A stretch of DNA of 64,000 nt. Source: Euglena gracilis. Taxonomy: Eukaryota. The DNA lies in NCBI GenBank assembly GCA_039621445.1, contig CP154954.1, positions 47,657,847 through 47,721,846 of the forward strand, given 5' to 3'. The notes under the pieces were generated by a model. The model did not search any database. It saw nothing but the letters and a program-made list of their open reading frames with translations, and had not been told where the DNA came from. Shown piece after piece: positions 23,677 through 64,000 of this stretch. The position numbers and the translations under genes were made by a program. Numbering within the stretch: the first letter of the stretch is position 1; the number at the start of each line of letters is the position of its first letter.

Positions 23677-24929
23677 TAAGTTCAAAAATTGCCAAAAAAA
23701 ATGGTCAAAAACATTCAAAAAATGCAAAAAAATGCAACTGTAAGACTTTTTTCATTTTTTGTTTAAGGAAATATTTGGCAGAAATGCCCCGAAACTTGCC
23801 AAAAATGATTGAAAATATGAAAATTTTTGAATATGAAAATATTGAAAAAATTTTCCGAGCAAGACCTTGTTGGCGTTTTTTTGTTTTTTTTAAAAAACAT
23901 TGTTAGAATTAAAAAAAACAAAAAAAACAGAGTCCAAAAAAAACAGGTTGCCAACTATGGTGCCCAGCCTCCTGTGACTTGTGAAAAGCAGATGATACTA
24001 TCCATTTTGTGTCCCAGATCTCTGGGTGATGAACCACGCAGCCTTTTTTCCTGGAGGTTGGGAAAATATCTGTGACATGTTGGTGAGATTTCTTTAAAAG
24101 CAACAATTGCTTCCGGAAAAAGCATTTTTTTCATGAATTTTTGGTGGACAAGTTTTGTTTGGGGGTGGTTCGGGAGGGGGGGGGGGGGGGGAGGGGGGGG
24201 GGGGGGGGGGAGGCGGGGAGGAATCATGGCCCAACCACCCCCACACGTTTTTTTTATTTGGCATCACCCAAATTTGCATGTAATTTTCCTTTGGTCGACC
24301 AAAAAATGTGCCCGCCAAAATCCGGGACGCGAGGGGGACGCGGGGGGGGGGGGGGGGGGGGGGGGGACGCGGGGGGGGGGGGGGGGGGGGGGGGGGGCGG
24401 GGAGAACACCCCCTTTGGTACATATGATGAGAGTCCAGGACCCCCCTTGTCTGGTTCCGCAACTAGCAACTCCAAAACACCTTTTTTTCATTCTTTGTAG
24501 ATTTGTTGAAGGTTATTACAGAGCTCCAAACGTTTTTGAAAAGCAGTGCGTCCCGTCCAGGGTAGACGGATCGTTTTTAAACAAGTCGTTTTTCAACATC
24601 GTTTTTTCGCAATCCGACAAAATGAAAACCGCCGAGCCGACATTCGCGACAACGAACCGACAGCGACTGCCGAAAACCGACTATGCGGTTTTGCTATAGC
24701 ACCGTTTTTTTTTGTATGTTCGCCCCTGATGGGAAAGAAGGTTCAACCGTACGTTTGCTACGCAGCAACGCACTTTCGACCGCTAAAAAGAATTTTCACC
24801 TTTCGCCGCAGCGCCCCCACCCCACACCGTGACAACATTTGAAAAAAAGTGCCAAAAGGTTTTATTTTTCTCAAACAGACTTTCCAAGAATGTGCCACGC
24901 CAAAAACTTGACAAAAACTTGATGCAACC

Positions 24930-25185
24930 TGTCGCCCAAATTTGGGCACCACGTCTGGCCCAAAACTGGGCACTTTCTGTGACACAAAACTCCACCCTCT
25001 GTGACACAAAACTGGCCACCATCTGTTTTGGCACCACGTCTGGCCCAAAACTAGACACCATGTGTAACACAAAAATGGCCATCTCATCTGCCCCAAAACT
25101 GGGCAACACATCTGGACCAAAACTGGCCAGCATGTCTGGCCCAAAACTGGGCACCACCTGTGGCCCAAAACTGGCCACCACCCAT
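24930..25185. repeat. Degenerate tandem repeats of about 23 bp (tggcccaaaactggccacca...); also at 18700-18905 and 29965-30185
   Basis: Recurrent cccaaaactggcc/ggccagttttggg units at three loci. Confidence 0.8.
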
Positions 25186-27308
25186 GGCACAGATTTTAGG
25201 GATGTGAATGCCAAAACCTTTGGGATGGGGAAAATTGGAATGCCTATTGGAAAAGGGAAACCAAAAGACAGCAAGAGGCAAAAAGGTGAAAGTTTTTGAA
25301 ATCTAAGGGGGGGATGGGTCCAGCAGGCTGGGGAAAAATGGGGCCAGCAGTTGTGGAAATGTCTAAGGGGCTAGGTCCAGCAGGCTGGGTCAAAATGTGC
25401 CAGAACTTTTGGAAATGTCTGGGGGGGCCTTGGTCCAGCAGGCTGGGGTAAAATGGGGCTAGATGCTGTGGAAATGTCTGGGGGGCTGGGTCCAGCAGTT
25501 AAATCCATCAGATTGGAATGAATGGGGACCACTTTCGGGAACTCGCCACCATAAACGCAACAAGACTTCCAGACTGACTGTAAGGCAAAAGCAAAAGCAA
25601 AAACAACAGAGAGAGAAAGTTGCACTTAGTGATGGTGCTGTGTGGGCCTTTTCAGACCATCGCAGTTGTCCATGGACTGCAGGGCCTTTCCAGGCCACCA
25701 CATAATGTGGGGCCTTTTCGGGCCACATATACATAACCAGATAGAACAACAAGGCCTTTTCAGCCACTGTATAGACCAAATGTCAAAGTGACCAAGTGCT
25801 GCAAAAATAGATTGGCCAAGGAATACTTGCGGCGTGGAGCTTGCTCAGTGCAACTTTGAGCCTTGGTTTGCACCTGCCAATTTAAAAACGGAAGAACAGA
25901 CCAGACCCACGCCGAGCAAGTTAGGAATCTGGCGAAAGGACAAGGATCGACTACTTCTTAACTCGCGATCTCATTTCGACTGTAATCTACACGTTTTTTT
26001 GCTCTTCGACAATTAAACACCTCGGAAACCGGTTTCCGACAAATAAACGTCATCCCTGGTCCCGTCACATTGTTGTTGCCTCTGGTAATGATGCGCAGTG
26101 ATTGCAAAGCTGTTTTTTTCCAACCCAAAGTGAACAATTTTGCTTTAGGAAGACTTTGAGAAGAGGTTGCTTGTACCCTAGAGTTGTCGTTGGATAAAAT
26201 TTTTGGAAGCTAATGTAAAGTGTGGCCATCCATGTGAATTGATGGCATTCCAATGCGAGACTTTGAGGAACAGCTTTTGGAGCAGTCGTTGTATGATCCT
26301 TCACCTCCCACATTTGTGAATTTTTGAGAGCTAGCTTTGCCCAACCTTTTGGGGGTGGCTCCCCTATGACCCCCTTGTGACCCCGGCAATCAAGGGTTTC
26401 GTCTCCCAACACCCACAGGGGTCTTTTTGCAAAATGAGCAATGCGCGAGACCCTCAAGCCATCAAATGCAAACATGAAGCCCAAAAAGAGAGGCGGCAAC
26501 AAAAATGTGAATTAAGTGACAAAGTTCTCCCAAAGGATGAAGGACAATTTATGGATTCCTTTTGCTTTGCCTTTTTTCACATTGTGGGCATTGCGACCCC
26601 CAGCGACCCCCCTGTGACCGCGGCCCACCCCCTTTGGGTGGAAGATGCGTGGTCATATTGTACAATCAATATGCAGACTCTTGAAGACATTCCCACCAAT
26701 TCCATTTTGAATCTTAGCATCTGTTGTAAAATTTTAAGTTCCTTGGCTCAGATTGTTACAGACGGGTTTCCCTACAAAATTGTCTATCAGGGCTTAAATT
26801 TCATGGGTCAGAGAGTCAACTATGGAGACAAGGCAGTACAGTTGGTCAACCCTTGGGACCCCCCCCTCCCCCCCCTGTACAGTTCCAACCCCCCCTCCCG
26901 GGACCCCCCCCTCCCCCCCCACTTCCAACCCCCCCGAGACAGATGAAAAATTTTTTGAAAAAACGGCTTGTTTTTTTAACAAAAACAAAACATGCTTTTT
27001 TAAGGGGGTGGTGCGGGTCGCGGGGGGGGGGGTCATGGGGGGTCACGGGAGGGGGGGGGACCCGGGGGGGGGGGGGCGGTCAGGGGGGGGGGGGGGTCAC
27101 GGGGGAAATATGACACTTTGCAGGTAGCCGGGAGGCAACGGCAACATCCATGACGTTGCATCTGCATTGTGATAAAATTGGTCATTTTTTGAAAGGGAAT
27201 TTTGTTAGGATTTTCTTGACCAACACGTTTTTGGGATGAAGTTTGGGCCGTTTTTGACAAAATTCCGTTTTGGGGGGAAATGCACTAGTTTTTGGCACTT
27301 CTTCAAGG

Positions 27309-34599: not shown

Positions 34600-35105
34600 A
34601 GGAAGCAGTGAAGTGGATCTGGCCCTTTGGTCCTTGATGAAGCAAGAATTTAACCAAGTCGTTGGAGAACATGCACAGTGGCAGATGAGAAGGCAAGACA
34701 AGGGACAGTTTGCCATTGACAAATGCTGGACAAAACAAGGATCTTTAAAAACACTTCAACTAAACCAACAAATCCGTCCCTTGACAAATCTGTGTGTCCA
34801 AGGATTGTGACACCATTGGGTGTAACCACCACTTCATCAGCCACAGTTCCAGCAATGTTGCCACCTGCCTCCGCAGCAAGGTCAACGCACACGCTTCCAG
34901 CCTTCATCATTTCCACAATGTGCTTCTCGATCAGAACTGGTGCGTTCTTTCCAGGGATGAAGGCCGTGGTGACGATGACATCCACTTCCAGAGTGCCCGC
35001 TCCGCAAACAAAAATTCAGGACACATCTCCTTGGTGTAACCACCAGCTCCTGCAAACGGTCAAGAACTCACCACCAGCCGTTGCACCGCCTGCTCCTGCT
35101 GCCAG
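34600..35105 (-). pseudogene. NNT: NAD(P) transhydrogenase domain I fragment with frameshifts and short deletions
   Basis: Colinear blocks GGEFLTV / AGAGGYTKEMCPEFLFAERAL / EVDVIVTTAFIPGKNAPVLIEKHIVEMMKAGSVCVDLAAEAGGNIAGTVADEVVVTPNGVTILGHTDL / PSHLPLCMFSNDLVKFLL match PntA/NNT motifs (GGYAKEM, TTALIPG, VDLAAEAGGN, DLPSRL). The frame changes between blocks. Confidence 0.88.
34695..34785 (-). other. 91-nt end-paired (nonconventional or intermediate) intron in the NNT fragment
   Basis: gattt|gtcaagggacggatttg ... caaactgtcccttgtctt|gcct. The ends are complementary, there is no terminal AG, both junctions are Y|R, and removal restores G-H-T-D-L-P-S. Confidence 0.8.
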
Positions 35106-36519: not shown

Positions 36520-36909
36520 ATGACAACAACATCTTGGGCTTGGGAATATTTCAAGCGAGTGTTAAAAAAGTTTGGGTATGGGGATGACGTTCTCCCTCAA
36601 TTGAAAATTCAGGTTGGTCAATGGGTGACACGAAGTGGTCCTTTGGCAATCACCACCCGACCTGTGCCAGCACCAATCCAGTTTTGGGAGGGGATTGCTT
36701 TGCATGTGCCAATTTTGGCCAAAGTGTGCCTCACAATTTTTGGCTTGGCTCCGTCTGAGGCATCTGTTGAACGAAGGTTTTCGAACCAGAGTTTGCTCCA
36801 TAGTGATTTGCGAGCTTCTTTGGATGACACGTCTGTGAAAGCCCTCATGTGCGTTCGTATGAACATCCCTCGGTTGATGACCCTGTCTGCTCCTGTCAAG
36901 GTTGAGTGA
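36520..36909 (+). pseudogene. hAT transposase C-terminal dimerisation domain remnant
   Basis: PIQFWEG...PILAKVCLTIFGLAPSEASVERRFSNQSLLHSDLRASLDDTSVKALMCVRMN fits the hATC pattern (W..., LA, PxSxASVERxFS, R.SL). Confidence 0.85.
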
Positions 36910-44900: not shown

Positions 44901-44956
44901 ATTTGGCAAAGAGAAAATTTTGTAACCGCATAAAAACTCAATCCAAATTTCTTCAC

Positions 44957-45639: not shown

Positions 45640-45915
45640 ATTGCAAAAGGCAACACAACTCCCTTGGTCGTGGTTTTGCGGACTGCCCGAGCGACGGCAT
45701 TCACGTATGCATGAAAAGAGGTTGCCGGATGATTCCCTGAAACGAACACACTTCCCGACTGCTGCGCACGTTGAGCCACACATTGTTCAATGATGCTCGC
45801 CTCATCGAACAACAGGCTGGGTTCCAGCTCCCATCCCGTCCAGGCAACAAAGAAATCATCCAGCTCAGGATAAGATGCTTGCCGATGTTGACACAGTTTG
45901 GCGAACTCCAAACAG
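45640..45915 (-). pseudogene. Fragment of an unidentified protein, homologous to 16640-16820
   Basis: See the alignment under 16640-16820. This copy extends to ...FHAYVNAVARAVRKTTTKGVVLPF. Confidence 0.6.
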
Positions 45916-46695: not shown

Positions 46696-46910
46696 CCATT
46701 AGGGCATTTGTGGCAATGACACGTTTTCCATTAAGGCATCTGTGGCAATGACATGTTTTCCATTAGGGCATCTGTGGCAATGACACGTTTTCCATTAGGG
46801 CATCTGTGGCAATGACACATTTTCCATTAGGGCATCTGTGGCAATGACACGTTTTCCATTAGGGCATCTGTGGCAATGACACGTTTTCCATTAGGGCATC
46901 TGTGGCAATC
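46696..46910. repeat. Minisatellite, 7 x 32 bp (ccattagggcatctgtggcaatgacacgtttt)
   Basis: Units start at 46696, 46728, 46760, 46792, 46824, 46856 and 46888 with no spacers. Degenerate inverted units lie at 45180-45260. Confidence 0.95.
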
Positions 46911-48221
46911 AAAAAATTGTTGTCATGAAATTTCGGCGACAGGTTGAGAGCTACCCTAGACTAGGTAGGTCTAGACTAGACTGGACTAGACTAGGTAGAT
47001 CTAGGGGGGTACTCCACAACAGAAGAAACGGCTAGAGGTTGCCTTTGAGCAATACGACAGGGAGTGTTAGACGTCACGGAAGACGACACACTTTACACAA
47101 AAAAGAGCCATACTTTGGTGGCCGCCGCAAATGATGGCAATGAAAATGGTATGCCACGGCTCCACACGATTTGTATTTTTGGGAATGGCAACACCACAAA
47201 AAACACATTTGTCCGTCTGTTTTATAGCACGCACACACACACACCTCAGCTGGCTGCCCAGATTGGCATTGCTGCAGTTTCTTTTGCCCGAAAGTATGGT
47301 AGCATTGTTTTGCAATACAACGGGGGTTTTGCATTACATCCCAATGGGGCGGGGGGCTTAAAAATTTTCTGAAGGGGGTGGGTCGAAATTTTGGTGGTCG
47401 CCAGCGACCGGTCGGTCTGACCACCAATGGTCGGTCGACCATGGCCAACGGTCGCTAGCGACCAGTCGCTAGCGACCACCAAACGTTCCACAGCCAATTT
47501 CCCGCAATGAGCCCTTAAAATTGACCATTTTTTGCGAACACGCAAAAAAGTTGCCAAAACGACCCCTTTTGGGGTGCCCAAGGGTCGGGGTTGGGAATAG
47601 CTCGGGGGGAACCAAGGTCCCCCCCCCCCGAGCTGTCCCCCCCCCCCCGCACTGTTCCCATTGGGCCGTAAAGGGTCCCGGGGACGGGACCCTTTACGGG
47701 GGGGGGGGCACGGTAAAAAATATTTAAAGATATTCCATTTTTGTGGAGTGTGGTTTGAGTGTTTCGTAACGAGTTTTTTTCAACGAAATGTCAGTTTTGT
47801 TTTTTTGCCTTTTTGTTGCCGTTTATTTCAGAAAAAGACATTTTTTTAAAAAAAACGCCAACTGTGAGAGTGGAGAGGGTCCGGAACCCCCGGTTGACCA
47901 ACGAAGTCCACCGAACCAGGGAGGGGAGTCCGGAAACCCAGTCAACGGGACCACCCTCCCTTCGAACCTGTTCATTGAGGGTATTTTCCCCAATGACCCC
48001 CCCCCCGCTCGACCTCCGTTCCGAACCCAAATTCAGCCCTCCAAAAAGTCGAAAAATCCACATTATTTAAAATTTACCCCTCAATTTGGCATCAAAATAA
48101 AATGTAAAAAAAAATGTACCCAATGGCGTGCAAATTCCTCTTTGGGATCGAAACTTGGAGCAATGCATGACACCATGTAAGTCACATGCCCCCTCAGACC
48201 CCAATGCCCCATTTCACCATG

Positions 48222-48239
48222 GTCCCTTTTTTGTCGCAG
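48222..48239 (+). promoter_or_regulatory. Candidate spliced-leader trans-splice acceptor (polypyrimidine tract + CAG)
   Basis: ccctttttgtcgcag ends 19 nt upstream of the RRM start codon. Euglenozoa add a spliced leader at such sites, but a cis acceptor cannot be excluded. Confidence 0.5.
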
Positions 48240-48258
48240 GTTTTCTCCCACCTTCACA

Positions 48259-48374
48259 ATGTCTGGTGGGCCAGTGACCACAATTTATTGCACAGAACTC
48301 CCACGCGATATGACAGAACGGGAGTTCTACAATCTTTTCCAGTTTGCAGATGGTTTTGAGCAGACATCTCTTTC
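48259..48374 (+). CDS. RRM RNA-binding protein (RBPMS/couch-potato-like), exon 1
   Basis: MSGGPVTTIYCTELPRDMTEREFYNLFQFADGFEQTSLS has RNP2 plus an LP.D...RE..LF helix. Followed by aaaCAGgg. Confidence 0.85.
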
Positions 48375-51300
48375 AAACAGGGTGTATTTGAAAGATGGAT
48401 GTGCAACAAAGCGTCAACTTGGAAAGCTGTGCTGTCACAACTCCCGCTTCTTCTTGGAGTTCACAAGTGATTGTGACTTCCCAAGATTTGGGGGGTCCGC
48501 ACTTGGTTTTCTTAGCCGGAGGGGTCCAGCCAACTATTAACTTTTTTTTTCCAGCCACCAACTCCCAATCGTCCCCCCCCCCGTGGGGGTCCGCTGAAAT
48601 AAAGTTTGGACCAAAAGGAATTGACCTTTTTAAAAAGGGGGGCAAACGGGCTATTTTTTTGCGGGGTTTTGGGTTTTCGCCTCCAAACTTTGGCAGAATA
48701 TGCCAACCCGGCTCTATTTTGATGTTTTGGGGTACCGTGCTGGGACTAGCCAGCACGTTTCTTCTAGCCAGCACCTTTTGGACCCTTTAGCCCGCACCCT
48801 TTGGATGAGCTTAGAGATAGTCCTATTCCCTTGGTTTTTTTTTATTTTGCTCGGGATCTAGGTTATAGTCAGGGGTCGTTTTGATGGTTGGGTGATTTGT
48901 TTGGTAAATTTTTGCTCCTTTTCCTTTCAAAATGGAGTTTTATCGTGGAATGTCATCGGAATTTCACAAAACTTGCCCAAAATGGCATTTTTGGCCATTT
49001 TTGGCCAAAAAAGTGCGCTTGTGGTGAACTTCACCGGTGAAGTTCACCGTTGGGTTAGGCAGAGGCTGTATTTTAGTCGGGTGCCGACCCCACCCCGGAG
49101 GGGGGGGGGTGCCTGCCTGGGCAGGCACCCCAAGGCACTCCAAATCTGATCCCACGGGGGGGGGGGGCACACGGCCAAAAGTTCCCTAGCACAGACCCCG
49201 CGCCAAAGGCGCCGGGGAGCCAAAAATGGCCTATTTTCAAAGGAATGTGCCTCGGCACAGGCCGAAATCCGCCCCCCCAAGTGGGGGGTAGTGCCTGCCT
49301 AGGCAGGCACTCATAGACACTCCGGACCCCCCCTCCCCCCGTTGGTAAAAAACGGCCTGGTCCGGGCCCCCCCGGTGAACTTTCAAACGGTGAACTTCAC
49401 CTAGAGGGGAGGGGAGGGGGGTCCAAAATCCCAAAAGTCACCACTTGATCTCCAATGAAAACCGCGGATTATCACCATGACCCCGGCCCGGATCCCAGAA
49501 TTTTTTTTTCACTCACCAGCGACTGGCTCCTGAGTTTCCGAATCACCTCCGTTTGACCCCCAACTCCCCGCCAGGCCCGTTGGGTGGGATTCGCCAACCC
49601 CCCCCCCCAGTTTCGACTCTGCCATTTTGACAGGGTGAAGGGGGGTCACGGGGGTCATGGGGACGACCCCCCCCAAAATACACCCCCCCTCAAAGTGTCC
49701 CCCCCAAAGTGGCCAAAAGTTTTGGCTTTACCTCCCCCCCTCGATTACTTTGGCGCCAAAGGCGCATTTGACACCCCCCAAAGTGTCCCTCCCCAGAGTG
49801 GCCATTTTGGGGTCCCACGGTGCCTGGAGGGTGGCCACTTTGAGGGGGGGGGTGAGGGCAATCAGGTTTTGTGCAATTCTGAGCTCTTTATGTATGTGAT
49901 GGTGCCATGGAGCCCAGGTACACGGGGGGGGGACCCCCCTGTTCACTTCCGAACTGAACTGGACACGTTGACTTCCCGGAGGGGGGGGGAGGGGGGGAGG
50001 GGGGGTCCGGCGCCGAAGGTGCCGAAATTTTGCATGAAAAAGTGCCTTGATTGGTGTGTGCTGATCCTTCTGGTTTTTTGGTTTTTTCCAGACGTGAACA
50101 AGTGTTGTACACGGGGACCCGGGACCAGGTCAGCTGGGTTCCCCACCCCCCCAAAACCCCATAATCACCGGGGCCACTGCTGGTCAACACCCCCGAATAG
50201 CGAAATTCTGGCAATTTTTCGACATAAATCGGGGCGGGGGGGGGGGACGGTGTGATTTTCGGGCCAGATTGCCTCAATGCCAGGAAACGGGGGGTGCCAA
50301 AAAGTGCGACCAGCCCCCGGGACCAGGTCAGCTGGTTTCCCCACCCCCTAATCACTTCCGAAATGAACTGAACAAGGGGGAGGGGGGAGGGGGGGGGTCC
50401 GGGGTCCCGAAGTGGATTACTAGCCTCCCATGCAGCATCAGATGTTCCAGGTGTGTGAGGCGGTCGGCGGAGGTTCGGCAGCCCCCCCCCCCCCAGTGGT
50501 CGGACCCCTCGGCACGGCAAAATGGGGACCCACCCCCCTGGTCAGCCAACCCCCTCGGCACGGCATGCCGAACCATACCAATGAATTTTCCTTTGGGAAA
50601 TTCCGGCTGTCCGCCACGGTGGACCCCCCCCTCTGGGGGACTGACCCCCTCGGCACGGCAAAATGGGGATCCCCCCCCTGGTGGTCGAGGGTCCTCGTCA
50701 GACGTGCCGAACCTGCGGCCTGGTGGCCCGGCCCAGCCAAGCATGGCATGGTCGGCGGCCCGGCCCGGCCCGGTCCAACCCCGGCCCAGCCCGGCACACC
50801 CAAAATTCTCACGAGGAGGAGCCCAGGTCACCGCGGTGTAACCGCGGTGTAACCGTGGTGTAATCGCGGCGAGAACAAGACCAATATCCCCCCCAAAGGG
50901 GTGTTCCCCCCGCAAACATCCCGCGTCCCCCCGTGTCCCCCCTGCGGATTTTGGCCAGGCATGTTTTTTTGGTCGACCAAAGGATAATTACACACAAATT
51001 TGGGTGACGCCAGAGAAAACGTGTCGGGCAGTTGGGCCACGGTTCCCCCCCGCGTCCCCCTGCGTTCTGTACCACCCCCAAAATAAGACCCGGTTTTTTT
51101 TTTGGGTCCCTTGTTTGCTGACCCGGGCCTGAAAACATCATTTTCCAGGTTCTCAAAAGCACTAAAATTTTTCTTTCGGCATTCCGCGCCATGTGTAAAC
51201 TGGTTCAATTCATCTTTTGCCCTATATTTGGAACTCAATACCATGCCCCCCCCCTTTCTGTTTCCCCCCCTTACTGTTCCCATTGGGGGGACGGGAACAG

Positions 51301-54300
51301 TACAGTGTCACAGCACTCTTTGTAAAGGATTCTTGGAATGCAAGGCAAAATGGGATTTTTGGGTTGGTTTTAGGTGCTCTCAATCCCACCAAAATCCAAC
51401 CCAATGCCAAAATGGATGTTGTGGAGGTGCAATTCAAGCATGCAAACCAAAAAAGCTTCATTTTGGCTTTTAGGTGGCCTTTTGGGTCTAACTTGGTTTG
51501 TTGGTTCATGGCCCATGGGAACAGTAAGGGGGCGGGGTGCTCGTCCCCCCCCCCCTTACTCCCCCCTTGCTGTTCCCATGGACCCAAAAGGGGGCCACAG
51601 GGCGGGAACAGTAAGGGGGGGGCATGGTATCCCAAAATTTTTGAAATTTCATTTATTGAACTTGTTTAAAAAATGAAATTTCAAATTTTTTTGGTAATTT
51701 TTCAGGGAAAAAAATTCACCATCTCTGCCGCTTTGTGCCGTCATTGGGGGGACTTGTTTTTGGATTTGCTTGATATGGGCCGCGATCCACGGGGGTCTTA
51801 TTTTGAGGGGGTCTTGTTTTTTGGGGGGTCTTATTTTGGGAGGTCACCCATTTTGCCAACCCCCCCGGGGGGTCTGACCCCCTCGGCAAGGCAAAATGGG
51901 AAGCACCTCCTGGGTGGCCGAGGGTCCTCATCGGACATGCCAAACCTCATACACATACATTTACCACCCAAACACTCAATCAGGGGGGTCAAATAAGGGG
52001 GGTAGTGGTTGGTTGACAGGTGGAATCCAAACCAAGATCATCGTGCAAAAGCGATTTTTGAACTCTGCCTCGGCTACCTTGCAAGGCATCTTGCCCACGT
52101 AACCGCGGTGATAACCGCAGTGTGGGCTCCTCCTGAAAAAGGCAAGTTTTTACCCCCAGTTTTAAATTGATAATTTTATGCAAACCGTGTCCAGGGGCTC
52201 TGGCTTCATGCCCGAACCGGCGTCCTTGGACGCCGGTTCGGGTGTGAAATTGGGGGGGGGGTTTGGGGTGATGATTTCCTTTTGGCCAATTTTGGGGAAT
52301 TTTTAAGGACATCTGCTGAAAGCCCTGGAGAAGAGCTTTCGATCAAGGGGCAACATGGCAGGTGAAACAGTGGAATTCGAATTCGAAAACAGGGTCGGAA
52401 CATGCGATCGCCAATTTTCAGAGCGCTGTGCAGTGTGGCTGAGTTCTGTGGGTACCAGGCGAAAGTTCTTGGGGAGAGCATTCAATTGATATGCTATATG
52501 GTGCCTGAACTTTGGGATTTGACAAATTAAGATGTCAATTTTGGAATGCACGATCGCTGAAAATATCAGCTCTATGCGTTATGGCTGAACTTGTGGCCAT
52601 CTGTCGAAAGCCCTTGAGAAGAGCTTTCAATTGATAGGTAAACCCCTCCCCCCATTTAAACCGACCTGTCGGTTTAGGACGTTTGGGTTGGCAGAAATCC
52701 TGGAGGGGGTTGGTTTAGACGGGGGGGTCGGTTTCAGGGCACACGGCTGGCTGACGGCTGGCCGACGCCGTGACGGAAGCGGGTTGATGTTAGCAAGGCA
52801 ATTTCGATTTGGAATGCAAATGCCCAATTTGGTCGGCCAATTCCTAACTTTGAGTGACAAATGCCCAATTTGGGATGGAAATTCTTAATTTTCGGGGGCA
52901 AATGCTGAATTTTGGGTGTAATATCCAATTTTTGGTGGCAAAATGCATAGTTTTGGGTGCAAATTTCAAATTTTAGGTTGCAAATGCCTAATTTTGTAAT
53001 TTTTGGGTGCCAACTCCAAATTTTCGGAGGAAAATGCCCAATTTGAGGTGCAAACTCCAAAATTTGGAATAAAATGCCTAATTTTGGGCGTAAAATCCTA
53101 ATTTTGGGTCATCAATATTAACCATTCAATGAGCATGGACGCTCTTTCTGTTGGCGGCTTCCATTATGTTGTGCAGGTTTGTCATCCAACTTGCCATGGG
53201 TCGATTTATTTCTTTTGTTGGTTGAAATTCTGCAATGGGTCGGTTTGGAAGGGTAGGTTGGTTTAGAAGGGGGGTCGGTTTTAATGGGGGGGGGGGTTTA
53301 ACATGGCTTCAGAAGTGTGAAACCTGCCAATTTCTATCACGACCAATTACGACCAAAATAACCCAAAAGTATCCCAAACATGGGTATTTGGGGCGAAATT
53401 GGCCGTGATTCCTTGGACGTCGGTTTGGGTGTGAAGCCGGAGCCCCCAAGACAAGAAACTTTTTTTCTTCAAGAAACTGTGTCCAGGACGCCGGTTCGGG
53501 CGTGAAGCCAGTGCCTGGGACGCCCGAACCGGCGTGCTTGGCACCGGCTTCATGCTCGAACTGGCGTCCTGGACACAGTTTTCAATATAGAAAATATGGC
53601 ATTTTTTTAGGGCTTTAGTTTTGGACATTTCCTTTGATTTTGCTTCATCTCCGAAATATTTTGGAAACATCGATTTTTTGACCCCGAAAACTGCCCGAAA
53701 TTGGGTCAAAACTGCCCGAAAAATTGCCGTAACTCGGGCCACACAAAGAGTTGAGGGGAAAGTAAATCATGGTTGGATAGGGTATTCCAAGGGCTTCATT
53801 TTTGCTCTCCGGACATTTTTTTTGAAAAATGTATTTTTTTCACCAAAAAAGGGCCCCAAAACACCCCAAAATGGCTGTTTTGGGCCACAAAATCGTTCCA
53901 GAGCACGGGCCAGGTGTGTCGGCATCCTAAACGGCGAACGGGGGGCGATAGAGGGCCTCCAGGGGCACATTTGGTCAGAGACACTTCCGGAGATAATGTA
54001 CGTTTTCTTGAGATAAACCCCCCAATTAGAAGCCCCCCCCCCCCTTGGGTTTACCGCCAAAAATCCAAATCCCCCCAGCCAATCCGGCTGACAAAATTGA
54101 CGAAAAATGTTCCGAAAAATAGTGAAAAACTGGACAAATCTCTGCGAAAACAGGTCGACATCAGGAACAAAATTGATAGCTGGTATCCTTGAAACACGGC
54201 CCATCCACCCAAAACTCAAAGAAAGTGAGCCTTGCACATCTTTGAAATTTGAGCCCGTTCGATCCCCGGATTGGCCGCCGGCCGAAGGTTTTCCTTTAGA

Positions 54301-55404
54301 CAAAGGGTACCCAATTAGAAACCCCCACCCTCGGGGTTTCCGCAGAGTGAATAGTAGCCTCGGGGGGCTTCTAATTGGGGGGGGGGTTATTTTGGAAAAT
54401 TTGAACCCTGCCCAGAAAATTCCTCGGTCTGTGGAGAAATTTGAGGCGTGACCATCTTTTTTTTGTGCCCCGCGCTGTCTTTGGTCCTCATCTCCCCCGT
54501 GACCCCCCCATGGCCCCCGTGACCCGGCCCACCCCTTTAAGTTAGAGCTGGCATTTTGTATTTCTTATTTTGAAAATACACAGCTTTTTTGAAATAAACT
54601 TTTCAACTCGGCGTCACCGTCTCCTTGCATCTCACCCAAAATACCTTGAATGCCCAGGAAACATTTTGCAAGAAAACATGCGAGATTGTCGGTGTGGTTT
54701 TACACCCAAAATTCTCATGAAAAAAGCAAGTTTTTCCCCCCCGATTTTAAATTGACATTTTTGTTAAGATTTTTTTTTGAAAAATTGGGTGTAAAAAAGC
54801 AGGTCAATTTGCTGAAAAGCATGTTTTTTTAAAACCTATTTCCAGGGCCCGACACCTGTCTTGAAAATCGACTGACATAAACGGGCAAGGGTGCCGTTCA
54901 TGTTTGATGGTTTTCAAGACAGGCACCCGTTCATGTCAAACGGGTTTCAAGACAGGCGCCCGTTCGTTTCGAACGGTTTTCAAGATAGGTACTGTTGGGA
55001 AAAACAGTTTTCAGAGGGGTGCCGTTTTTTTTTGATGAAAACCACAAAAAAGCGTCAAAAAAATCCATCGTACGGGATCTTTATCGTTGAACGTTGCTCA
55101 AGACACGCGTGCGGGCCCTGCAAAATAGGTTTTTGACAAATCGACCGCACTCACGGTTTTAGCAGGGGCGCCGGGCAGGCGCCCCTGACCATCAGTGGCA
55201 GTTGATTTTTGCTTTAATATAATACAAAAAACAAAAAAAGAAAGAAAAAGAAGGGGTGACACATCAACCGTGTCACCCCTATGACTTCCCGTGACCCAGA
55301 GCGCAGGTTATTCTTAAACCACAAGGATGATTTCCCCAAGTCGTCACTTTTATTTGAAAGTCAGGAGTTCACCAAAATGATCTGCATAAGTCATCCCTGA
55401 TGAT
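48375..55404 (+). other. Nonconventional intron 1, 7030 nt, filled with nested repeats
   Basis: tc|aaaCAGggtg ... catccCTGatgat|gacc. CAG at +4..+6, CTG at -8..-6, Y|R at both junctions, and the join is in frame. Confidence 0.8.
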
Positions 55405-55483
55405 GACCACCAGCAGCGGAAATCTCATGGGGTTTGCACGGTTTAACAGCATTGAGCAAGCGGAGCAGTGTGCCGCATATTTG
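55405..55483 (+). CDS. RRM protein exon 2
   Basis: TTSSGNLMGFARFNSIEQAEQCAAYL has RNP1 (MGFARF) and helix 2. The 3' boundary is uncertain by 1-3 nt. Confidence 0.85.
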
Positions 55484-58400
55484 GGCGTGGAATCTCTTTG
55501 TGATCCAACCATCAATTTTGATTTGCCATTTCTTTTTGGATTCTTCTTCGGTTACATTTTTTTTGCGGAGGTTTCAAGTGTGATAATTTCAGGGGGTGCA
55601 GTCCCCGTGGTGCCCCACTGTGACCCGCAAATTGGGCCTCAGCAGGTTGAGGAAATAATTTCCAAAATGACTTAGAAAGGCCCTTTTTGAGCCACTGCCC
55701 GTTTTTTTTTGGTTCCCGAAAGAGGCCATCCCCCCCTGTAACCCCCCCCCCCACGGTGACCCGCTCCACCCCCTCAAGGCAAGAATACGTTTTCACTAAA
55801 TGCTGTTTTTTCTAAAGAGAACACAACTCCTCGTTTGTTCATGGGGAAATTGTATTTACAGCCAGGACCATCACAAGTTGGCAAACCCAAAGCAGCCAGT
55901 GAAAGTTGCCCCCCCCCTACCATTCCCGTTCCAGGCTCTTCACGGCCCAATAGAGACTTGGCAGGGGGGTGCACCACAGTGTGTGCCGTTTGGGGGGTCT
56001 GGCCAGGGCGGCGCCTTTGCCACTGGCCAATTTTTTGCCATTTATTTTGAAAATGTGTGAAAAATTCATTCTATAATTTTTCAGGTCGGGAAACAACTTT
56101 TCAACAAAAAAATGTTGGTCCAGCTCTCCCTTTTTTTCAGGCAAAAGTGGGGGGAATTCACCCACTCACCCTCCCATTCCCCCCCCCCCCCTACCCACCC
56201 ATTCACTCCCTCCCCCCCCTGCACACAATTTTTCCGAAGACCCCCACCGCCTGTGTAATTTTTGTTGATTTCCTTTTGGAACCCTGGTACGCTTGCAGAT
56301 GAAGACACCAAAGGGGTCTTTATTGCTCCCACCGGACCCTGAGAAAACGTTTCTCAGTTGGATAAAAATCAAACAAAACCTGATTTATGGACAGCAAAAT
56401 GGTTTATGCCAACAATGGACCCACTTTTTCAGAAGCAAACCGTTGTCAAATGCTGTTTTTTTATAGCTAACCTTGAGTATATTTTGCCCCAAACCCAAGT
56501 GTTTTCGCCGCCCGTCCTCAGAATTTTCGCTGGTCTGTCCAAATATTTCCGCCCCGCGTGCAATCATTTCCGCCCCTGTTCCATTCTTTTTTGCCACAAA
56601 GTTTTTCACTTTCGCCCCTGCCAGGTTAATTTTCGCCACTCTGAAAAATTCTTTTTTCTTGTTTTCTCTTTCCTTTTCCAGCCATGATGTCCAGTCAAAA
56701 TGTTTCTGGTTCCTGAGCCAGAGGTAGGTTGAGAGTGCACCACAATTTGCTGAATGCCAGGGGGTTTTTTTTAATCTTGGACCCCTGGGGGGGAGGGGGG
56801 GGCAGGGTAGGTGCGTCCGGCCCAGCCTGCCCCCCTGGGCCTGGGGGGATATACTTGCCGGCCACAAAGGATCCGAGAATTTTTTGAAAAGGTGCTATTT
56901 TCAGCATTTTTCGTGATTTTTTGGCCATTTTCGGGGAACGAGAGTGGGTCCCCCCGGGACCCCCCCCCAGGGGGTGGGTGGTTGGGGGGAACCCCCCCCT
57001 CCCAGTGCTGTGGACCTTCTTGGCCATCTGGGCCAACTTTTTTTTATACTTTTTTGGCAAGTTGAGGTCATTTCAAGCCATCTTTTGACATTTTTTGGGG
57101 CCGCTTTTTCTTTTTTTAAGTCACTTTTTGGTCTTTTTTTGGCCCAAAATGGCCAAATAAATGTCCCAAGGGTCCCAGGCACTTCCTGAAAGTTTTCTAA
57201 ATCCTCAAAATAGTCTCAAGAAAAGTGCGCATCATACCCTCCCACCCAAAGTGGCCACCCTCTAGGCGCCGTTGGACCCCAAAATGGTCGCACTGGGGGG
57301 GACAGTTTGTGGGGGGCAGGCTTTTTTTGTCTGGTGCCTACCCCACGGGGGGGGGTGCTGGGTGCTGGGGGGGTCAATTTTGTTTGGCCTTCGGCACTTT
57401 TGGTGCCGAAGGAAAAACGTCACTTTGGGGGGATAAACCAAAATTTGCCAATAATTTTTTTGTCCATTTTGGCCGGGGGGGGGTGAGCTTTTTGAGGGGA
57501 GGGGTGAGGGTAAGCGGATTTTTTTGCATATTTTTTCACACATTCGCGCATTTTTGCACTTGTTCCATGCCCTTTTCATGAACGTTTGATGCATTTGCAG
57601 CAACAGTGCATTAAACCCTCCGGTGTGTTATTTGGGCACCCGAACTGGGGCCCAGGGGGGTGTGTTATTTGGGGGGGGGTGTTATTTTTACATGGAAAAC
57701 CAAAGGAAAACAGGGGGGGTGTTATTTGGGCGCTCGAAATCGGCCCCCGAGAGGGGGTGGTGTTATTTGGGGGGTTTTAAGGTGTGCCCCGTTCAACTGC
57801 CAAGGGTACCGGGAGTAACGGGCAGGTGTGGTGAAAATGACGAGGATCAATGGCAAAGTAAACCAGATCAAGTTTGCGAAAATGTATGGAACTGCGGCAA
57901 AAATTCTTTGGAGGACTGGCTAAAGTCGTGGGGTTGGGTGGCGAAAGGTTCCTGGCCAGGGGGGGGGGGGCGGAAATTTTTAAGGTAAGGTATAACAAAT
58001 GAAACACATTTCAATGCCTTTTTTTTGGACAACGAAACATTGTATGTCAGGCAACTTTTTGCGCTCACCACCTCTGCTCTGATTTGCATTGCTTCCCACC
58101 GTTTTCCCTTGAGAAGGTTTGTTTCCAACTGCCACAGGCGGTGGTCCTCTTTTGCCGTGTTTCGCTTCAGGCCCGTCCTCGAATGCCATTTGATGATCTC
58201 AGAGAGATGTACGCCCCAGCCGTGTGGTTTCAGAGTGAGGTAAGGGCGGGGGGGGAGATGACGTCGGCAGAGGCAGGCCCACTGGGAGCCAAAAAAATCG
58301 GCGTCGTGGCCGCAATTTAAGAAATGCCTCGGATGCTTTTTTGCGCATGTGCGCATTCGCCGACGTTTTCCTCATGCGATGAAGCACTGCCGGCACAGTT

Positions 58401-61400
58401 GGGATTTGGGGTGCCCATCACTGAGTAATTTTCTCAGGCACTGAAGTCCCTTTCTCATCCGTTTCCCCAAGGTGTGGCGCAGTGGGATGTGCAGAAAAAG
58501 CAGAATGGAAAAATTGCTGGGTTTAGCTGTAACATTTTTTCTGATGTGTCTGTGCCTGACTCACTGTTTCAGGGGCCCGGAGAAACTTTGGGGCAAGGAC
58601 TGACCAATGTTTTCGCTTCTTTGAACCCAATTGGATTGTGAAATAATTCTATTTTTTCGGACGGTTTTTGGGAGTGGTGCCAAAGTGCTGACAGGTATGT
58701 TTCGCTCTCCGGTTCCAACGCAGTGAACACCGTGTGTGTGGAATCAGACACGATCCCCAGCGTTGGCCCTGGTCGCGGTGCACAGTGCTCCTGGCACCGT
58801 GCGCCGCAGCGCAACATGAGGTTGTTCAGGGGACATGTTGGCTGTGTGCTGCATTGTATGCTCTTGGCTTGGGGTTGGACAATGCTGGTTGCAACTGGCC
58901 AATCACCTCCGCAGGGTGGGGGACATGGTGCATGTGAGTTGTGACGTGCTCTACACGTTCATGAGAGCAGCACAAGGGCTGGGCACTGGACAGCGGTGGG
59001 TGACCTGGAGTATGCAGGTGTGCATTCCGATGACTTGAACTGCAGGGGGGTAGTTTCCTATTACTGAAGGACATGAATGTGTGTGAGATGCCTGCCGTCG
59101 CTGAGCTCAGGGTTTCCCACACCATTACAGGTGTTGTGTCATGGCCTGTCAGAGCGACACTCCTGCCCCCCCTCCCACCCTTCTGATTGTGATTCTCCCA
59201 CCCCTCCCCTGCTCTCCAAGAACAAACAAGGTCCTTTTGTAAGTGCAAGGCACAGTTTTTCAATGGTACACACACAAATGAACCCTGTTGTGTACAGGTA
59301 GACGCCTGATAAATGCTGTTGTGCACTGGTGAAAGCTCTTTGTGCATGGGTCCAAAAAAACAAACCAACACTGCGGCTCACAGACCAACAGAGTTGAAAA
59401 ACCCCTCAAGGCGCCTTAAAAAAAATTGAATTTGAAACCGGAAAACAAAAATATTTGGAAAAACTTTCTGTCAAAAAGAATAAAGACTGGGTCATATTTC
59501 GACAATGATTACAACATAGATTGCTATGAGAAAAAGAAATGAAAGAGGCCCATGCGGTCAGCAATGTGGTGTGGTGAGGGTGGTGGCCTCGGCGCGGAAA
59601 TGGTCACCTGAGTCCTCAGGTGGTCAAAAGTCAGGATTCCAAATTTTCTGGGGGGCCCGCCTCAGGAGCATCCACAACGTTGGGGAGGGAATTGGGAATA
59701 TAATTGGGGGTAGTCCTCAGATGGCCGGGAATGTAGTTTTTTTTGTTGAAAATGCGCATCTGCGCATTCCGAATAGTTCTGTGCCTCTTCCAGGCTGGGT
59801 GAAAACACCTCAAAACTGAGCTGCTTTTGTTTCATGTGACCACAAGACCCACTCTCTCATTTTCTGGTTTAGCTGTGTGCCATGCCGTTTGTAGCTGATT
59901 TGTGACGACTGCGGTACAGTGCACGGCTGGAGAAACATTTGGAACGCTCTTCATGGCGGGTGACGGAGGCCAGTCTCGACCTGGTTTTATCACCGTGCGT
60001 TCACCGATGCGTGCTGAGGGTTCCTGGCGGCAGGGCCAGAGCGTGGGAAGGAATTTTCTGCAGCCATAGAGACACAGCCCTCCCAGGGGGAGTGCAACAG
60101 AGTCCCACGTCCAGAAAGTGCGGACCTGCGCATTTTTTGGAACCCCAAGAAAATGCGCAGGTGAGCAGCTTTGGAATGGACACAGGCTGTGCACAGGGAG
60201 AATGCATTGATGTTGAAGGACACACTGGGAAACACCGTTGTTTGCCTGCCTTGGATCCAAGGCATGGACTGGGGGAGGTGGGGAGGGGAAGGGGGTGCCG
60301 GCCTCCCAGAGCATGGTTACCAGGGAGCCTGGTGACCTGGAGCCTCTCTGTGGCGCTCCTCCAGGAAGCCAAATGTATTTTTTATTTTCGTTGCGGACCC
60401 CCCTGAGGGCAGTTTCACTGAAAAAAATAATAACCCATTTTGGGACACAAACTGAAGAAACTGCTTCCATTGCTTGGCTTCAATTTCACAAATTTTTATT
60501 TAAATAATACAATCAATTACCAGTGTTTCTTGTTCACAAGAAAAGTTTCTGGGAGGAACTCTCTGAGTGAATGACAACTCAATGAAAATGAGAAAGGGTC
60601 GCTGTTCGACCTGCCTTGGAAAAAGACGGTGCCACATAAATGAGGAGAATTTTGCAACCCCTCGACTTTTGTGGGTGGGAACTCAACCCCAAGCCCCAAA
60701 GCCTATGTGAGTCCATGGGCTGTGGTGATGGTGTGTGCACACTAGCACGGCCCTGCCCCACGCAGCAGCACCCCAGCCAGGGCTTTGGGCAAAACTGAGG
60801 CCACTTGTGTGAAAGCAAAATGTTTCTATTTGTGAGCAAGGGGGCGAGGTGGTCAATCCTGGGGTGGGTGGCGTTTGGTCCCAGCTTTGGACAACGCATG
60901 CTGAACCCCTGTCAACGCTGGCTGTGGAGGCAGTGACTTGGTCAAGGTGACCAAATTGGGCTAAAATGGTGAAAAATGGCTCAAGTCAGCCAAAGCCCAC
61001 CCACCTCAGTATTGACGACCTCGCCTCCTTGACTGGGCAGCGGCTTGAGTGGAAAGCAAAGAAGGACACAAATGGAAACATTTTGCTCTCACACAAGTGG
61101 CCTCAGATGTGTCCAAAGCCGTGTGGCAGAGCTGGCTGGGATGCTGCTGCGTGGGGCATGGCCGTGCAAGTGTGCACACACCATCACCACAGCCCATGGG
61201 CAAACATAGGCTTTGGGGCTTGGGGTTGAGTGTCCGCGCACAAAACTCGTTTGGCACATTTATTTCGTTTTACATAGATTTTCATGGTATTAGTTGAACA
61301 CAGGTTCCACACTTTTTTTTGCCTGCACCCATTACCTCATCTATTGTCATTTATCTTTGTTTTATTACTGCACCCGGCGACCGAATTTTTCTCGTTTCAC

Positions 61401-61797
61401 ACCATGTGGTTTTGCACTTCCGGCCATTTTTTTTGCCCTTTATCTCAAAAATGTTTGCACTTTATCTCAAAACTGTTTGCACCTTTTCCCAAGAATATTT
61501 GCTTCCGTTCCGAAAATTTTTGCACTTGGATAGGTCGTTTCGCATTATCGCCCTTTGAAACTTCAACCGGAGTGGAGTGTCTCTTTTTCCATTGCGCAGT
61601 GTGAGGCTTTTTTATTGTGCAAAATAACACGACGGAGGGCAATTTTTTTGAGGGCTGGGCAAGAATCTTGACAGGTTGGGGCAAATGTTTTTGCCAGCCA
61701 TGGACAAACATTTCAGATGCCAGGTGTAGTTGTTTTTAGAGGAGAGGGAGGTTCAGGGTTTGATGTGTCATCAGCGGCTGGAAGAGGTTTCATTGCC
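55484..61797 (+). other. Nonconventional intron 2, about 6.3 kb
   Basis: 5' ggcgtggaatctctt pairs with 3' aagaggtttcattgcc using G-U pairs. No GT-AG. The exact register is ambiguous (YLNG, YLDG or YLGNG). Confidence 0.7.
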
Positions 61798-61817
61798 AAT
61801 GGCCGGATTGTGGACCC
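61798..61817 (+). CDS. RRM protein exon 3 (20-nt micro-exon)
   Basis: aat ggc cgg att gtg gac cc = NGRIVDP, the expected LNG...DP segment. Both flanks pair with the distant intron ends. Confidence 0.75.
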
Positions 61818-62207
61818 ATCTGAGCACTTCCTGTATTTATGGTTGCAAGTCGCTTAGAAGTATTTTACTTAAGTGTACACCCCCACCCAGACCCACACCC
61901 ACAGCACCCCCCCCTCCCCCCATATGGCCTTCATTCCAACTTCCCCCCTGGGCGTTGGGAAGGGGTGGTCGGATCCCACCTGCACAGCCTCTTAAATGAG
62001 ATCACACAAATTTTTTTTCTGAGTTGCATGCTGGAGATCACAAGAACAATCGCATTCCCCGCCACCTCCCCATACCCGCCCGCCCATCTATCCATTCACA
62101 CCCACACACGCACACGTTGGCCCACCTGCCCGCCCACCCATGCGTACCGCGTGCAACAACCCTGGGAGCCTGCTTGCGAGATTGTCGCCCGGAGGTGCTT
62201 TGGCCCC
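61818..62207 (+). other. Nonconventional intron 3, 390 nt
   Basis: cc|atctgagcacttcc ... ggaggtgctttggcccc|agca. Paired ends, Y|R junctions, in-frame join D-P-A-S. Confidence 0.78.
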
Positions 62208-62351
62208 AGCATCCGGGGCCGTCATCAAATGCATGATGGCTCAGAAGAACCTCAAACCATCGAGCCGCCCCCCGGTGGCTAAGAGGCCCTTCGGGGACGT
62301 GTTGGGGACCTCGCTGCCGGTTTCGAAGGCGGCCCGGACCTCGCCCGCGTC
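62208..62351 (+). CDS. RRM protein exon 4 (3' end uncertain)
   Basis: ASGAVIKCMMAQKNLKPSSRPPVAKRPFGDVLGTSLPVSKAART has RRM beta4 (equivalent to LRLEFAKAN) followed by a basic tail. Confidence 0.75.
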
Positions 62352-63370
62352 TCTCAGGCACAGCCACATTTGGGGGAGAATGCAGTTGAGTGGCAAGGAA
62401 TCCTGCATCTCTGTCATATGCTCACTGTGTTAAACATTGTCCATTGGTTGGAACGGCCCCCTTGGATAATGACCACCCATTGATAATTGTTCACTGAGGA
62501 AACTTTCACCAGTTTGAGAACATATTGACCACCTGCCAAAAATTCTGGAGGTAAAAATGCAGAGACTGAAAAAAGAAGGTCCTGTTGCATTCATTGTATA
62601 CATTTTTGGGACACCATTTTTTTTCACAGATTTGGGCAATTTTGGGCCACTTTGAACCTGCAAGAGCAAGTGTATGGTCTTTCGCATCTTTTGTCATTCT
62701 GGGCCAATTAAGGGTCATTTTGGGGGCCATTTTGGTTCATTTCGGTCATGTGGGACCTTTTGATGGCATGCTGACCCAGTTTTGACTGTATTGACCGTTT
62801 TGGTCAAGGAAATGATTTTTTTTGTCTTCTCGACCCTCATGTTCTCGACCCCCATTTGTAATGACCTCCTCGTTGTTATAAATGAGGGGGTTGGGTCGGC
62901 CTGCAGGTATTGGTTTTCTTTTCCCACCGTTTGCTTTCTTGTTATGTCGATGCGGGTGGCTGACAGGCAAAAAAGAAACAGCTGGATTTTTTGCACCTTG
63001 CCTGCCTGCTCCCAGGGGAAGCATTGATGGGGTTTAACTGCAGCCACTAAACTGTGTCCTCCCTGTAACTGAGTCCACCAAATATCTCCAGGCAGATTGC
63101 TTCAGGAAAGGTTGAATAATCCTTGAGCATTTACAGTTGGGGGAAATTGCCGTGAAAATCTATGGCCAGGATCAGGATTTCTTTCCCAATAGCCAGCAGC
63201 AAGAAACTTTTGCTTCCGGTTGTGATTGCTGTGGAAGACGGTCATTTTTTGCGTGCTTCCAAGCAGCCAGCATTTTTTCAAGAGGTGGTGCTGAAAGACG
63301 AAATTCTTGAGATGTGAATGCCCATTTAGCCTTTCAACAAACCACACCTGCAACCCAGTGAGCTCCAGCC

Positions 63371-63855
63371 CAGGCATTATTATTCATTTAAAACTTTTTA
63401 ATTTGAAATTACTTCAAATTAAAAAATTTGAAATTTTTTAAAACAAAAAAAATTCAAAAATTTTTTATGGTTTCTAAAGGCGTTTCTTTATTTTTTTTAA
63501 GGGTTTTTGAGGCATTTTCAAATTTTTAATAATTTTTAAGGCGTCTATTTGTCATGGGTGGTCAAAGAGCCATCTGGACATCGATCCAACGTCGGTCCAG
63601 GTTGAAAATCAAACCCATTTTTTTGAGTTTTCGGTAGACACACAATGTTCCAGTGATGCCAGAAATCATTCCCCCCGGGGTTTAACTTGCTCTGCGGAGA
63701 TATGCGACTTCTTTTTTGATCAAAAGATTTGAAAAATTTTCCAACACCAATTTTTTTTTTAAGTTTTTCTAAGGCATTTTGGTTCAAAAATTTTTAAGGT
63801 TTTTTGAAGTTTTTTTTTAAAGGTTTTTTAAGGTTCCTTAAGAAAATAATACCTG
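63371..63855. mobile_element. 485-bp hAT-like MITE with a perfect 8-bp TSD; probable nonconventional intron 63368-63860
   Basis: ctccagcc|CAGgcattatt ... aataatacCTG|ctccagcc. AT-rich interior related to 2380-2806. Removal gives an open frame V-S-S-S-L-P-G-P-G-Y-S-G. Confidence 0.75.
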
Positions 63856-63860
63856 CTCCA

Positions 63861-63886
63861 GCCTTCCTGGCCCGGGCTACTCTGGG
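63861..63886 (+). CDS. Tentative downstream micro-exon (LPGPGYSG), probably of the RRM gene
   Basis: GC-rich segment between the 63368-63860 element and a possible 61-nt intron at 63887-63947 (tcaCTGggtattt...aaatgatccCAGcagac). No homology support. Confidence 0.35.
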
Positions 63887-64000
63887 TCACTGGGTATTTA
63901 CGAGGAAAAAATTTGTTGATTGAATCCCAAAAATGATCCCAGCAGACCTTGTCCAAGAGGGCACTCATTTAATGCCCCCCCCCCCAACAAGACACCTTTT

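Follow-up and report, generated by a model that had tools for sequence, protein, structure and literature searches.

The nonconventional introns of euglenids are removed without GT-AG ends and carry ends that base-pair with each other (Milanowski et al. 2014, 2016), and both their origin and their removal have been open questions since the 1990s. The present analysis concerns introns of this kind in a 64,000-nucleotide (nt) stretch of Euglena gracilis DNA (contig CP154954.1, positions 47,657,847 to 47,721,846 of the forward strand), hereafter called the window, which has the appearance of Euglena-type nuclear DNA and in which long open frames are scarce. Its focus is the interval 61813-62210, in which intron 3 of a gene probably lies; the gene is expressed from the plus strand and has a weak signature of the RNA recognition motif (RRM). 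A preliminary description of the window had compared the last 5 exon and first 3 intron bases with the last 5 intron and first 3 exon bases (the 5+3 score) at four loci, and had read the results as a series of rising age among introns that began as insertions flanked by 8-base-pair (bp) target site duplications (TSDs). In the reading favored here, that series is not demonstrated, and descent of the introns from inserted elements is something that we infer.

The idea that such introns come from mobile DNA has been published in several forms. Elements resembling MITEs (miniature transposable elements with inverted repeats) were proposed as their source, with direct repeats at most borders (PMC3935182), and these border repeats have been termed TSD-like (PMC11282704). 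An intron gained recently in a single strain of E. agilis is flanked by 8-nt direct repeats, longer than those at the other introns studied, which were ascribed to double-strand-break repair (PMC4770533). The transposon idea has been repeated since (PMC6221363, PMC12621601, PMC11170887). A code derived by experiment was reported in 2025: the motifs CAG and CTG, a strict 3-nt donor spacer, an acceptor spacer of 5-6 nt whose sequence is free, and a purine where the acceptor exon starts. The same report, which covers 649,158 E. agilis introns and uses an EgGSL2 knock-in assay, finds 84.4% of introns with direct repeats and returns to MITEs as a suggested source (PMC12501133). Published work therefore already contains both the idea of a MITE origin and a young intron with an 8-nt repeat. 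In the portions of the searched literature that were available, no statement was found that the 3-nt and 5-nt spacers add up to the length of a TSD, nor one naming a transposon superfamily, and the searched literature yielded no printed link between nonconventional introns and hAT elements.

The introns of the window resemble this code to different degrees. In intron 1 of the RRM-like gene and in an intron-like insert in a fragment of an NNT gene, positions +4..+6 are occupied by CAG or a covarying AAG and positions -8..-6 by CTG or CTT, so that the spacers measure 3 nt and 5 nt; the 5' end of intron 4 carries a CAG-type motif at +4..+6. Introns 2 and 3, in contrast, have spacers of 5/6 nt and 8-11/0-3 nt and lack CAG/CTG, and intron 3 follows a micro-exon of 13 nt.

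Intron 3 and the RNA-based model of the RRM-like gene

Reads from three raw RNA-seq runs (X8, X11 and X12) bearing the same species label, and sequences from one contig run (X1), were mapped over 44001-64000. The joints reported here are the best-supported ones listed; 29 further joints exist. Most reads show 95-99% identity to the window, with exon differences at 48360, 62211, 62259 and 62308. The X12 reads over the RRM-like gene have a single orientation, which fits plus-strand transcription. The RRM signature of the gene is an RRM_1 match at 48181-48537 that lies below threshold (13.3 bits, where the cutoff is 20.7).

The borders of intron 3 follow from reads that run to 55483, continue with 13 letters identical to 61798-61810 and then jump to 62201 (one contig and 20, 4 and 33 reads). 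The intron is therefore 61811-62200 and not 61818-62207, as given in the preliminary description, which had overlooked the micro-exon at 61798-61810; the RNA-supported borders lie 4-7 nt to the left of those proposed before. The former borders would give an mRNA reading ...GTGGACCC/AGC, and the reads instead resume at TGGCCCCAGC. For intron 1, by comparison, the borders proposed before proved exact by RNA.

At none of the four slides allowed by its borders does intron 3 begin and end with GT-AG; the terminal dinucleotides are TG..TT, GG..TT, GA..TG and AC..GG, and the corresponding 5+3 scores are 4, 4, 5 or 6 of 8. The CAG/CTG pair is likewise absent at all four slides, where positions +4..+6 read ACC, CCC, CCA and CAT, and positions -8..-6 read AGG, GGT, GTG and TGC. 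Where the code has a purine, as the first letter of the acceptor exon, the four slides give T, G, G or C. The ends of the intron do pair, with a predicted duplex energy of -31.7 kcal/mol and a 10-bp core helix, but this helix stands 8-11 nt from the 5' splice site and 0-3 nt from the 3' splice site, rather than at the 3-nt and 5-6-nt distances of the code. By its borders and end pairing, intron 3 belongs to the nonconventional class, outside the canonical arrangement of 3 nt, CAG...CTG and 5 nt.

The borders of intron 3 are also marked by an 8-nt direct repeat, TGGACCCA and TGGCCCCA, whose copies match at 7 of 8 positions in the best register, 0. In random position pairs from the window, 7/8 or more is reached in the best register with P=0.006 per intron. 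TGG and CCA, the two halves of the repeat, complement each other, and in the predicted fold they pair across both splice sites: 61811-13 lies opposite 62206-08, and 61816-18 opposite 62201-03, next to the 10-bp helix. Since the left copy of the repeat is separated by 3 nt from the helix arm, the clean reading of intron 3 as a TSD abutting an inverted repeat fails. Intron 3 can thus be placed in a known class of introns as an atypical case, and the 8-nt repeat at its flanks is real.

The repeat may have nothing to do with transposition, although we consider this doubtful. It could be kept by RNA structure, the two copies pairing through their complementary TGG and CCA halves and so extending the terminal helix across both splice sites, or it could be microhomology dating from the gain of the intron, if that gain came about by double-strand-break repair, as has been proposed for the young gapC intron (PMC4770533). 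The predicted pairing of the repeat halves beside the helix speaks for such a reading, as does the 3-nt gap between the left copy and the helix arm, which is unlike a TSD abutting an inverted repeat, and in E. agilis 84.4% of all introns, among them the conventional ones, have short direct repeats (PMC12501133). Extensions of three base pairs would nevertheless contribute little energy, the length of 8 nt is what an 8-bp TSD predicts, and neither structure nor repair explains two elements elsewhere in the window that are flanked by perfect 8-bp TSDs.

The other introns of the gene range from fully canonical to noncanonical (Table 1). The joint of intron 1, 48374->55405, is supported by 48, 5 and 54 reads (107 in total) and one contig, and cannot slide. 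Written with slashes for the splice junctions, the intron has the form C/aaaCAGGG...CCCTGatgat/G, with CAG at +4..+6 and CTG at -8..-6, and it agrees with the canonical nonconventional code in every feature tested, including the C/a and t/G junctions. Exon 2 ends at 55483 according to the RNA. The terminal helix of intron 2 starts at +6 and ends at -7, leaving spacers of 5 and 6 nt. The exon at 62201-62351 ends in a loose end shared by 41 reads of X12, 14 reads of X11 and one contig, and for the first 20 nt of the exon that follows in these sequences the window offers no match, even with 3 mismatches allowed. The start of intron 4 is accordingly 62352, and the intron leaves the window. Of its exon positions that can be scored, 0/3 match.

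Three minor features of the gene and its reads stand apart from this model. A second joint at intron 1, 48340->55389, was found in 3, 6 and 8 reads (17 against 107 for the main joint); it skips 7048 nt, has AG..TA ends, is slidable by 3 and places CAG and CTG at other distances from the borders. Intron 2 contains a foldback at 60663-61249 whose arms, 118 and 57 nt long, are 91% and 89% complementary. At exon positions 48360, 62211, 62259, 62278 and 62308, part or most of the RNA reads carry letters other than those of the window, which suggests two expressed alleles or a strain difference.

Two inverted-repeat elements with perfect 8-bp TSDs

Elsewhere in the window, two elements with terminal inverted repeats are each flanked, directly beside those repeats, by a perfect (8/8) 8-bp TSD. 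One is 485 bp long and is nested in intron 4; the other, 1501 bp long, lies at 24558-26058 (Table 1). Each occurs as a single copy in the window. In both, CAG starts 3 nt past position 5 of the left TSD copy, and the last letter of CTG stands 5 nt ahead of position 6 in the right copy, so that the published code, applied to either strand, would excise the element together with exactly one copy of the TSD.

The 485-bp element supplied the 8/8 score in the preliminary description, which had treated 63368-63860 as an intron. It is instead part of intron 4. The raw runs cover 62677-64000 at a read depth of 0 to 0.14, and no joint for separate splicing of the element at sites inside its TSD copies is present among the joints listed. 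Virtual excision of the 1501-bp element on either strand opened no long frame across the site, so this element is not demonstrated as an intron either.

A tie between elements and introns is provided by the 10-mer CAGGGATGAC, which has exactly two copies in the window, one at the right end of the 1501-bp element and one at the right end of the RNA-verified intron 1, where it sits 5 nt inside the 3' splice site. With at most one mismatch allowed, the 10-mer occurs at 11 sites against 3.46 expected, a number reached in 0 of 100 shuffles. The terminus CAGGGNTGACGTTT is present three times in the window, at 17537 (+), 26058 (-) and 28277 (-). As a separate observation, the termini at 17537 (+) and 28277 (-) have no partners. 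An exact 20-mer of the right end of the 1501-bp element matched 0 loci in a metagenome scan. A degenerate pattern for the family matched 64 metagenome loci, many of them in human-gut contigs, and was set aside as unrelated, the similarity stopping at 18-23 nt.

These structures suggest a route by which the canonical introns could have arisen. Canonical nonconventional introns would descend from CAG...CTG inverted-repeat elements that made 8-bp TSDs on insertion, and each TSD copy would hold one of the splice sites, 5 nt in from its start. The machinery would cut at these two places, remove the element and exactly one copy of the duplication on whichever strand is transcribed, and so restore the original mRNA. 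The spacers, being free in sequence, would decay with age, while the helix would be kept. In its most specific form, this proposal takes canonical introns to be hAT-like CAG...CTG insertions whose 3-nt and 5-nt spacers are the intronic parts of one 8-bp TSD, a tentative reading that is possible but for which the odds are somewhat short of even. If true, it would account for the 3/5 asymmetry of the spacers, for the preference for pyrimidine/purine (Y/R) that both junctions have in common and for the many slidable borders.

Transposons of the hAT superfamily make 8-bp TSDs and have CAG-type termini. The two elements are like non-autonomous hAT elements, or hAT MITEs, in their 8-bp TSDs and in their short inverted-repeat ends starting with CAG, and a hAT remnant is present in the window; they differ in that each has only one copy in the window, where no autonomous partner with the same ends was found. 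A second comparison is offered by introners, known from Micromonas, Aureococcus and dinoflagellates. These spliceosomal introns derive from transposons, and one of their splice sites is supplied by the TSD. The proposed removal of an element with one TSD copy, leaving a restored mRNA, is like that of introners. Introners are, however, excised by the spliceosome at GT-AG-type sites, whereas here the euglenid code is measured from a helix and no family of near-identical intronic copies is shown. There is likewise agreement with the published MITE-origin hypothesis in the inverted-repeat ends, in the direct repeats at the borders (PMC3935182, PMC11282704, PMC12501133) and in the 8-nt repeat at a recently gained intron (PMC4770533), the difference being that two complete 8-bp-TSD elements with the right geometry are seen here directly, as elements rather than as demonstrated introns.

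The window adds to the published record two complete elements with 8-bp TSDs, whose ends stand exactly at the 3-nt and 5-nt spacer positions of the published code, and an RNA-verified intron 1 with a terminus common to one of them. If the 3-nt and 5-nt spacers made up one TSD genome-wide, the geometry of the code would have a mechanistic reason, a class of transposon to seek would be indicated, and the age of an intron could be measured from the decay of its borders. The age series as presented establishes none of these consequences. What is useful in it is a sharper, testable form of the published hypothesis.

Chance expectation and the proposed age series

All eight 8-mers quoted in the preliminary description are found in their places on rechecking: GACCCATC at 61813, GCCCCAGC at 62203, CTCCAGCC at 63363 and 63856, CTTTCAAA at 48370, ATGATGAC at 55400 and, read from the minus strand, the two of the NNT insert at 34783/34692. 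Recounting returned the reported 8/8 at 63368-63860, 6/8 at the former borders of intron 3 and 5/8 at the NNT insert; for intron 1, the figure of about 1/8 becomes 2/8. As a series of introns, the four points fare less well, one of them not being an intron, one having the wrong borders and one lying in the NNT fragment, outside the RNA-mapped 20 kb. Because no locus has an independent age, the order of the series is that of the score itself.

How often such scores arise by chance was estimated from 400,000 position pairs per null, all drawn from the window itself. Random pairs gave a mean score of 2.01, with P(>=5)=0.036 and P(>=6)=0.008. Among pairs with Y/R at both junctions, the mean was 2.52, P(>=5)=0.075 and P(>=6)=0.017, and among pairs matched to the CAG/CTG code as well as to Y/R, the corresponding values were 2.53, 0.077 and 0.015. 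The three RNA-verified introns (scores of 2, 1 and 4-6; sum 7-9) are not above the junction-matched null (p 0.34-0.67), and adding the NNT insert gives, in the best case, a sum of 14 with p 0.10. Scores no higher than a junction-matched null, which the preliminary description had named as the outcome that would refute its series, are thus what the verified trio gives at this sample size.

A scan of the window for CAG..CTG pairs with arms matching at >=10/14 in non-simple sequence, for which the filter retained 856/1087 adjacent pairs, bears on the same point. Flanks matching 8/8 occurred at 2/856 pairs, against 0/870, 0/893, 0/912 and 0/873 in four offset controls, while the classes of 5-7/8 showed no excess (22/856 against 41, 26, 36 and 25 in the offset controls). 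The window holds two fresh duplications, without a visible population of half-decayed ones. When the scan was run without the complexity filter, the offset-8 control likewise yielded two 8/8 matches. A general scan for inverted repeats with flanking duplications was dropped, low-complexity and palindromic artefacts having dominated its output.

Several points weigh against the reading favored here, in which 61813-62210 covers an atypical intron and the series is not demonstrated. The three scores assigned to older introns in the preliminary description, 6+5+2 = 13, are nominally significant against the junction-matched null (p 0.02), before selection of cases and register is allowed for. The DNA identity of the two arms, a crude proxy for age, correlates with the 5+3 score in the predicted direction, although not significantly (Spearman 0.73, p 0.10, six cases of which two are not introns). 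The repeat at intron 3 (7/8) is, as noted above, improbable by chance. A C at 61814 in the expressed allele would give the same mRNA from the border proposed before, and a rare joint across 63368-63860 or at that former border could be among the 29 further joints. Finally, a real decay series may still exist, since three verified introns give almost no power.

An age series proper, in which all four loci are 8-bp-TSD insertions and scores of 8, 6, 5 and 1-2 mark rising age as the intronic TSD halves decay and end pairing is kept, is nonetheless unlikely. It would be in keeping with the two elements that combine perfect 8-bp TSDs and CAG...CTG ends at the exact 3/5 geometry, with the 10-nt terminus common to one of them and to intron 1, though that intron retains only 2/8, with the resemblance, in an alignment by eye, of the NNT left end AAGGGACGGAT to the left end CAGGGTAGACGGAT of the 1501-bp element, and with the relation of score to arm identity. 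The spacers of the published code, being unconstrained in sequence, would be free to decay (PMC12501133), and the 8-nt repeat at the young gapC intron (PMC4770533) agrees with this reading. Against this, the 8/8 case is not an intron but is nested in one; intron 3 had been given wrong borders, its helix spacing of 8-11/0-3 nt is outside the 5+3 register, and with the arms taken as flush to an element its flanks match, by eye, at 2/8. The verified introns 2 and 4 score 1/8 and 0/3, the verified set as a whole does not exceed the null, the inverted-repeat pairs of the window lack an excess of 5-7/8 flanks, and the order has no independent measure of age.

The four-point age series is therefore not established in this window, and the underlying idea is still testable. 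That introns arise as 8-bp-TSD insertions gains some support from the exact 3/5 geometry of the two CAG...CTG elements and their perfect TSDs, from the 10-mer that the RNA-verified intron 1 has in common with one of them and, short of significance, from the relation of arm identity to the 5+3 score. The scores of the RNA-verified introns do not rise above the null. The observation reported earlier is partly confirmed, and the interpretation placed on it partly supported.

The sequence CAGGG also fits the terminal pattern of hAT transposons. That they belong instead to Merlin or another superfamily, with the nearby hAT remnant unrelated, is improbable: two Merlin families with 8-bp TSDs are described in Euglena gracilis (PMC8101967), and the hAT remnant is only a C-terminal piece to which no inverted-repeat ends could be assigned, but Merlin inverted repeats end in 5'-GG according to PMC8101967, whereas the elements here begin with CAGG.

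Features of the window and neighboring loci

Table 1. Introns, elements and gene remnants of the window, with positions counted from its first letter.
Feature	Position	Strand	Description
AlaDh_PNT_C exon (NNT)	34653-35015	-	Pfam match
Intron-like insert in NNT fragment	34695..34785	-	91 nt; gtcAAGGGAC...GTCCCTTgtctt; 3/5 geometry; 5+3 score 5/8; from sequence only
hAT transposase remnant, C-terminal dimerisation region	36547..36900	+	about the last 110 aa; PF05699
1501-bp inverted-repeat element	24558..26058	.	ends CAGGGTAGACGGAT/CAGGGATGACGTTT, 9/11; TSD GTCCCGTC at 24550-24557 and 26059-26066
RRM-gene intron 1	48375..55404	+	7030 nt; RNA joint 48374->55405; 5+3 score 2/8
RRM-gene intron 2	55484..61797	+	6314 nt; GG..CC ends; not slidable; 5+3 score 1/8; joint 55483->61798
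Micro-exon AATGGCCGGATTG	61798..61810	+	13 nt, between introns 2 and 3; reads from three runs and one contig
RRM-gene intron 3	61811..62200	+	390 nt; borders slidable 0 to +3 nt on TGG; RNA joint
Direct repeat at intron 3 borders	61811..61818; 62201-62208	+	TGGACCCA; TGGCCCCA; 7/8 match, best register 0
Terminal helix of intron 3	61822..61831; 62191-62200	+	5' arm GAGCACTTCC; partner GGAGGTGCTT; 10 bp, two G-U pairs
RRM-gene intron 4, 5' part	62352..64000	+	starts tctCAGGCACAGCC; continues beyond window; loose end at 62351
485-bp inverted-repeat element	63371..63855	.	ends CAGGCATTATT/CAGGTATTATT, 10/11; TSD CTCCAGCC at 63363-63370 and 63856-63863

Protein-coding content was surveyed by Pfam scans of 243 frames of >=90 amino acids (aa) and 53 shorter frames, which returned three useful matches: AlaDh_PNT_C, a hAT dimerisation region and the sub-threshold RRM_1 already described.

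The hAT match (PF05699; E=2.9e-07, 30.6 bits against a cutoff of 21.4) lies in a plus-strand frame at 36316-36906. HMMER recovered 122 relatives of the remnant, many of them short fragments at 45-75% identity, while a word-based homologue search gave no match, and tblastn with 16 hAT relatives matched the window at 36250-36903 only. No inverted-repeat ends could be assigned around the remnant, and none there match those of the two TSD-flanked elements.

The NNT locus is a gene fragment. In tblastn comparisons with three full-length homologues, it covers only residues ~256-378 of ~1045 and contains frame breaks. Its intron-like insert has the covarying pair AAG/CTT and a junction that, give or take a slide of 3 nt, is where the alignment with the homologues puts it.

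Long runs of G or C (45420-45437, 46384 and 49981-50005) attract many partly fitting reads and joints that appear to link opposite strands; these look like low-complexity alignment artefacts rather than transcripts. Around the NNT locus, 68-nt inverted repeats at 32966-33033 and 36375-36442, 94% complementary and made of 33-nt palindromes, bracket about 3.3 kb that contain the NNT fragment (34553-35053, minus strand), which may be part of a gene taken up by a mobile element.

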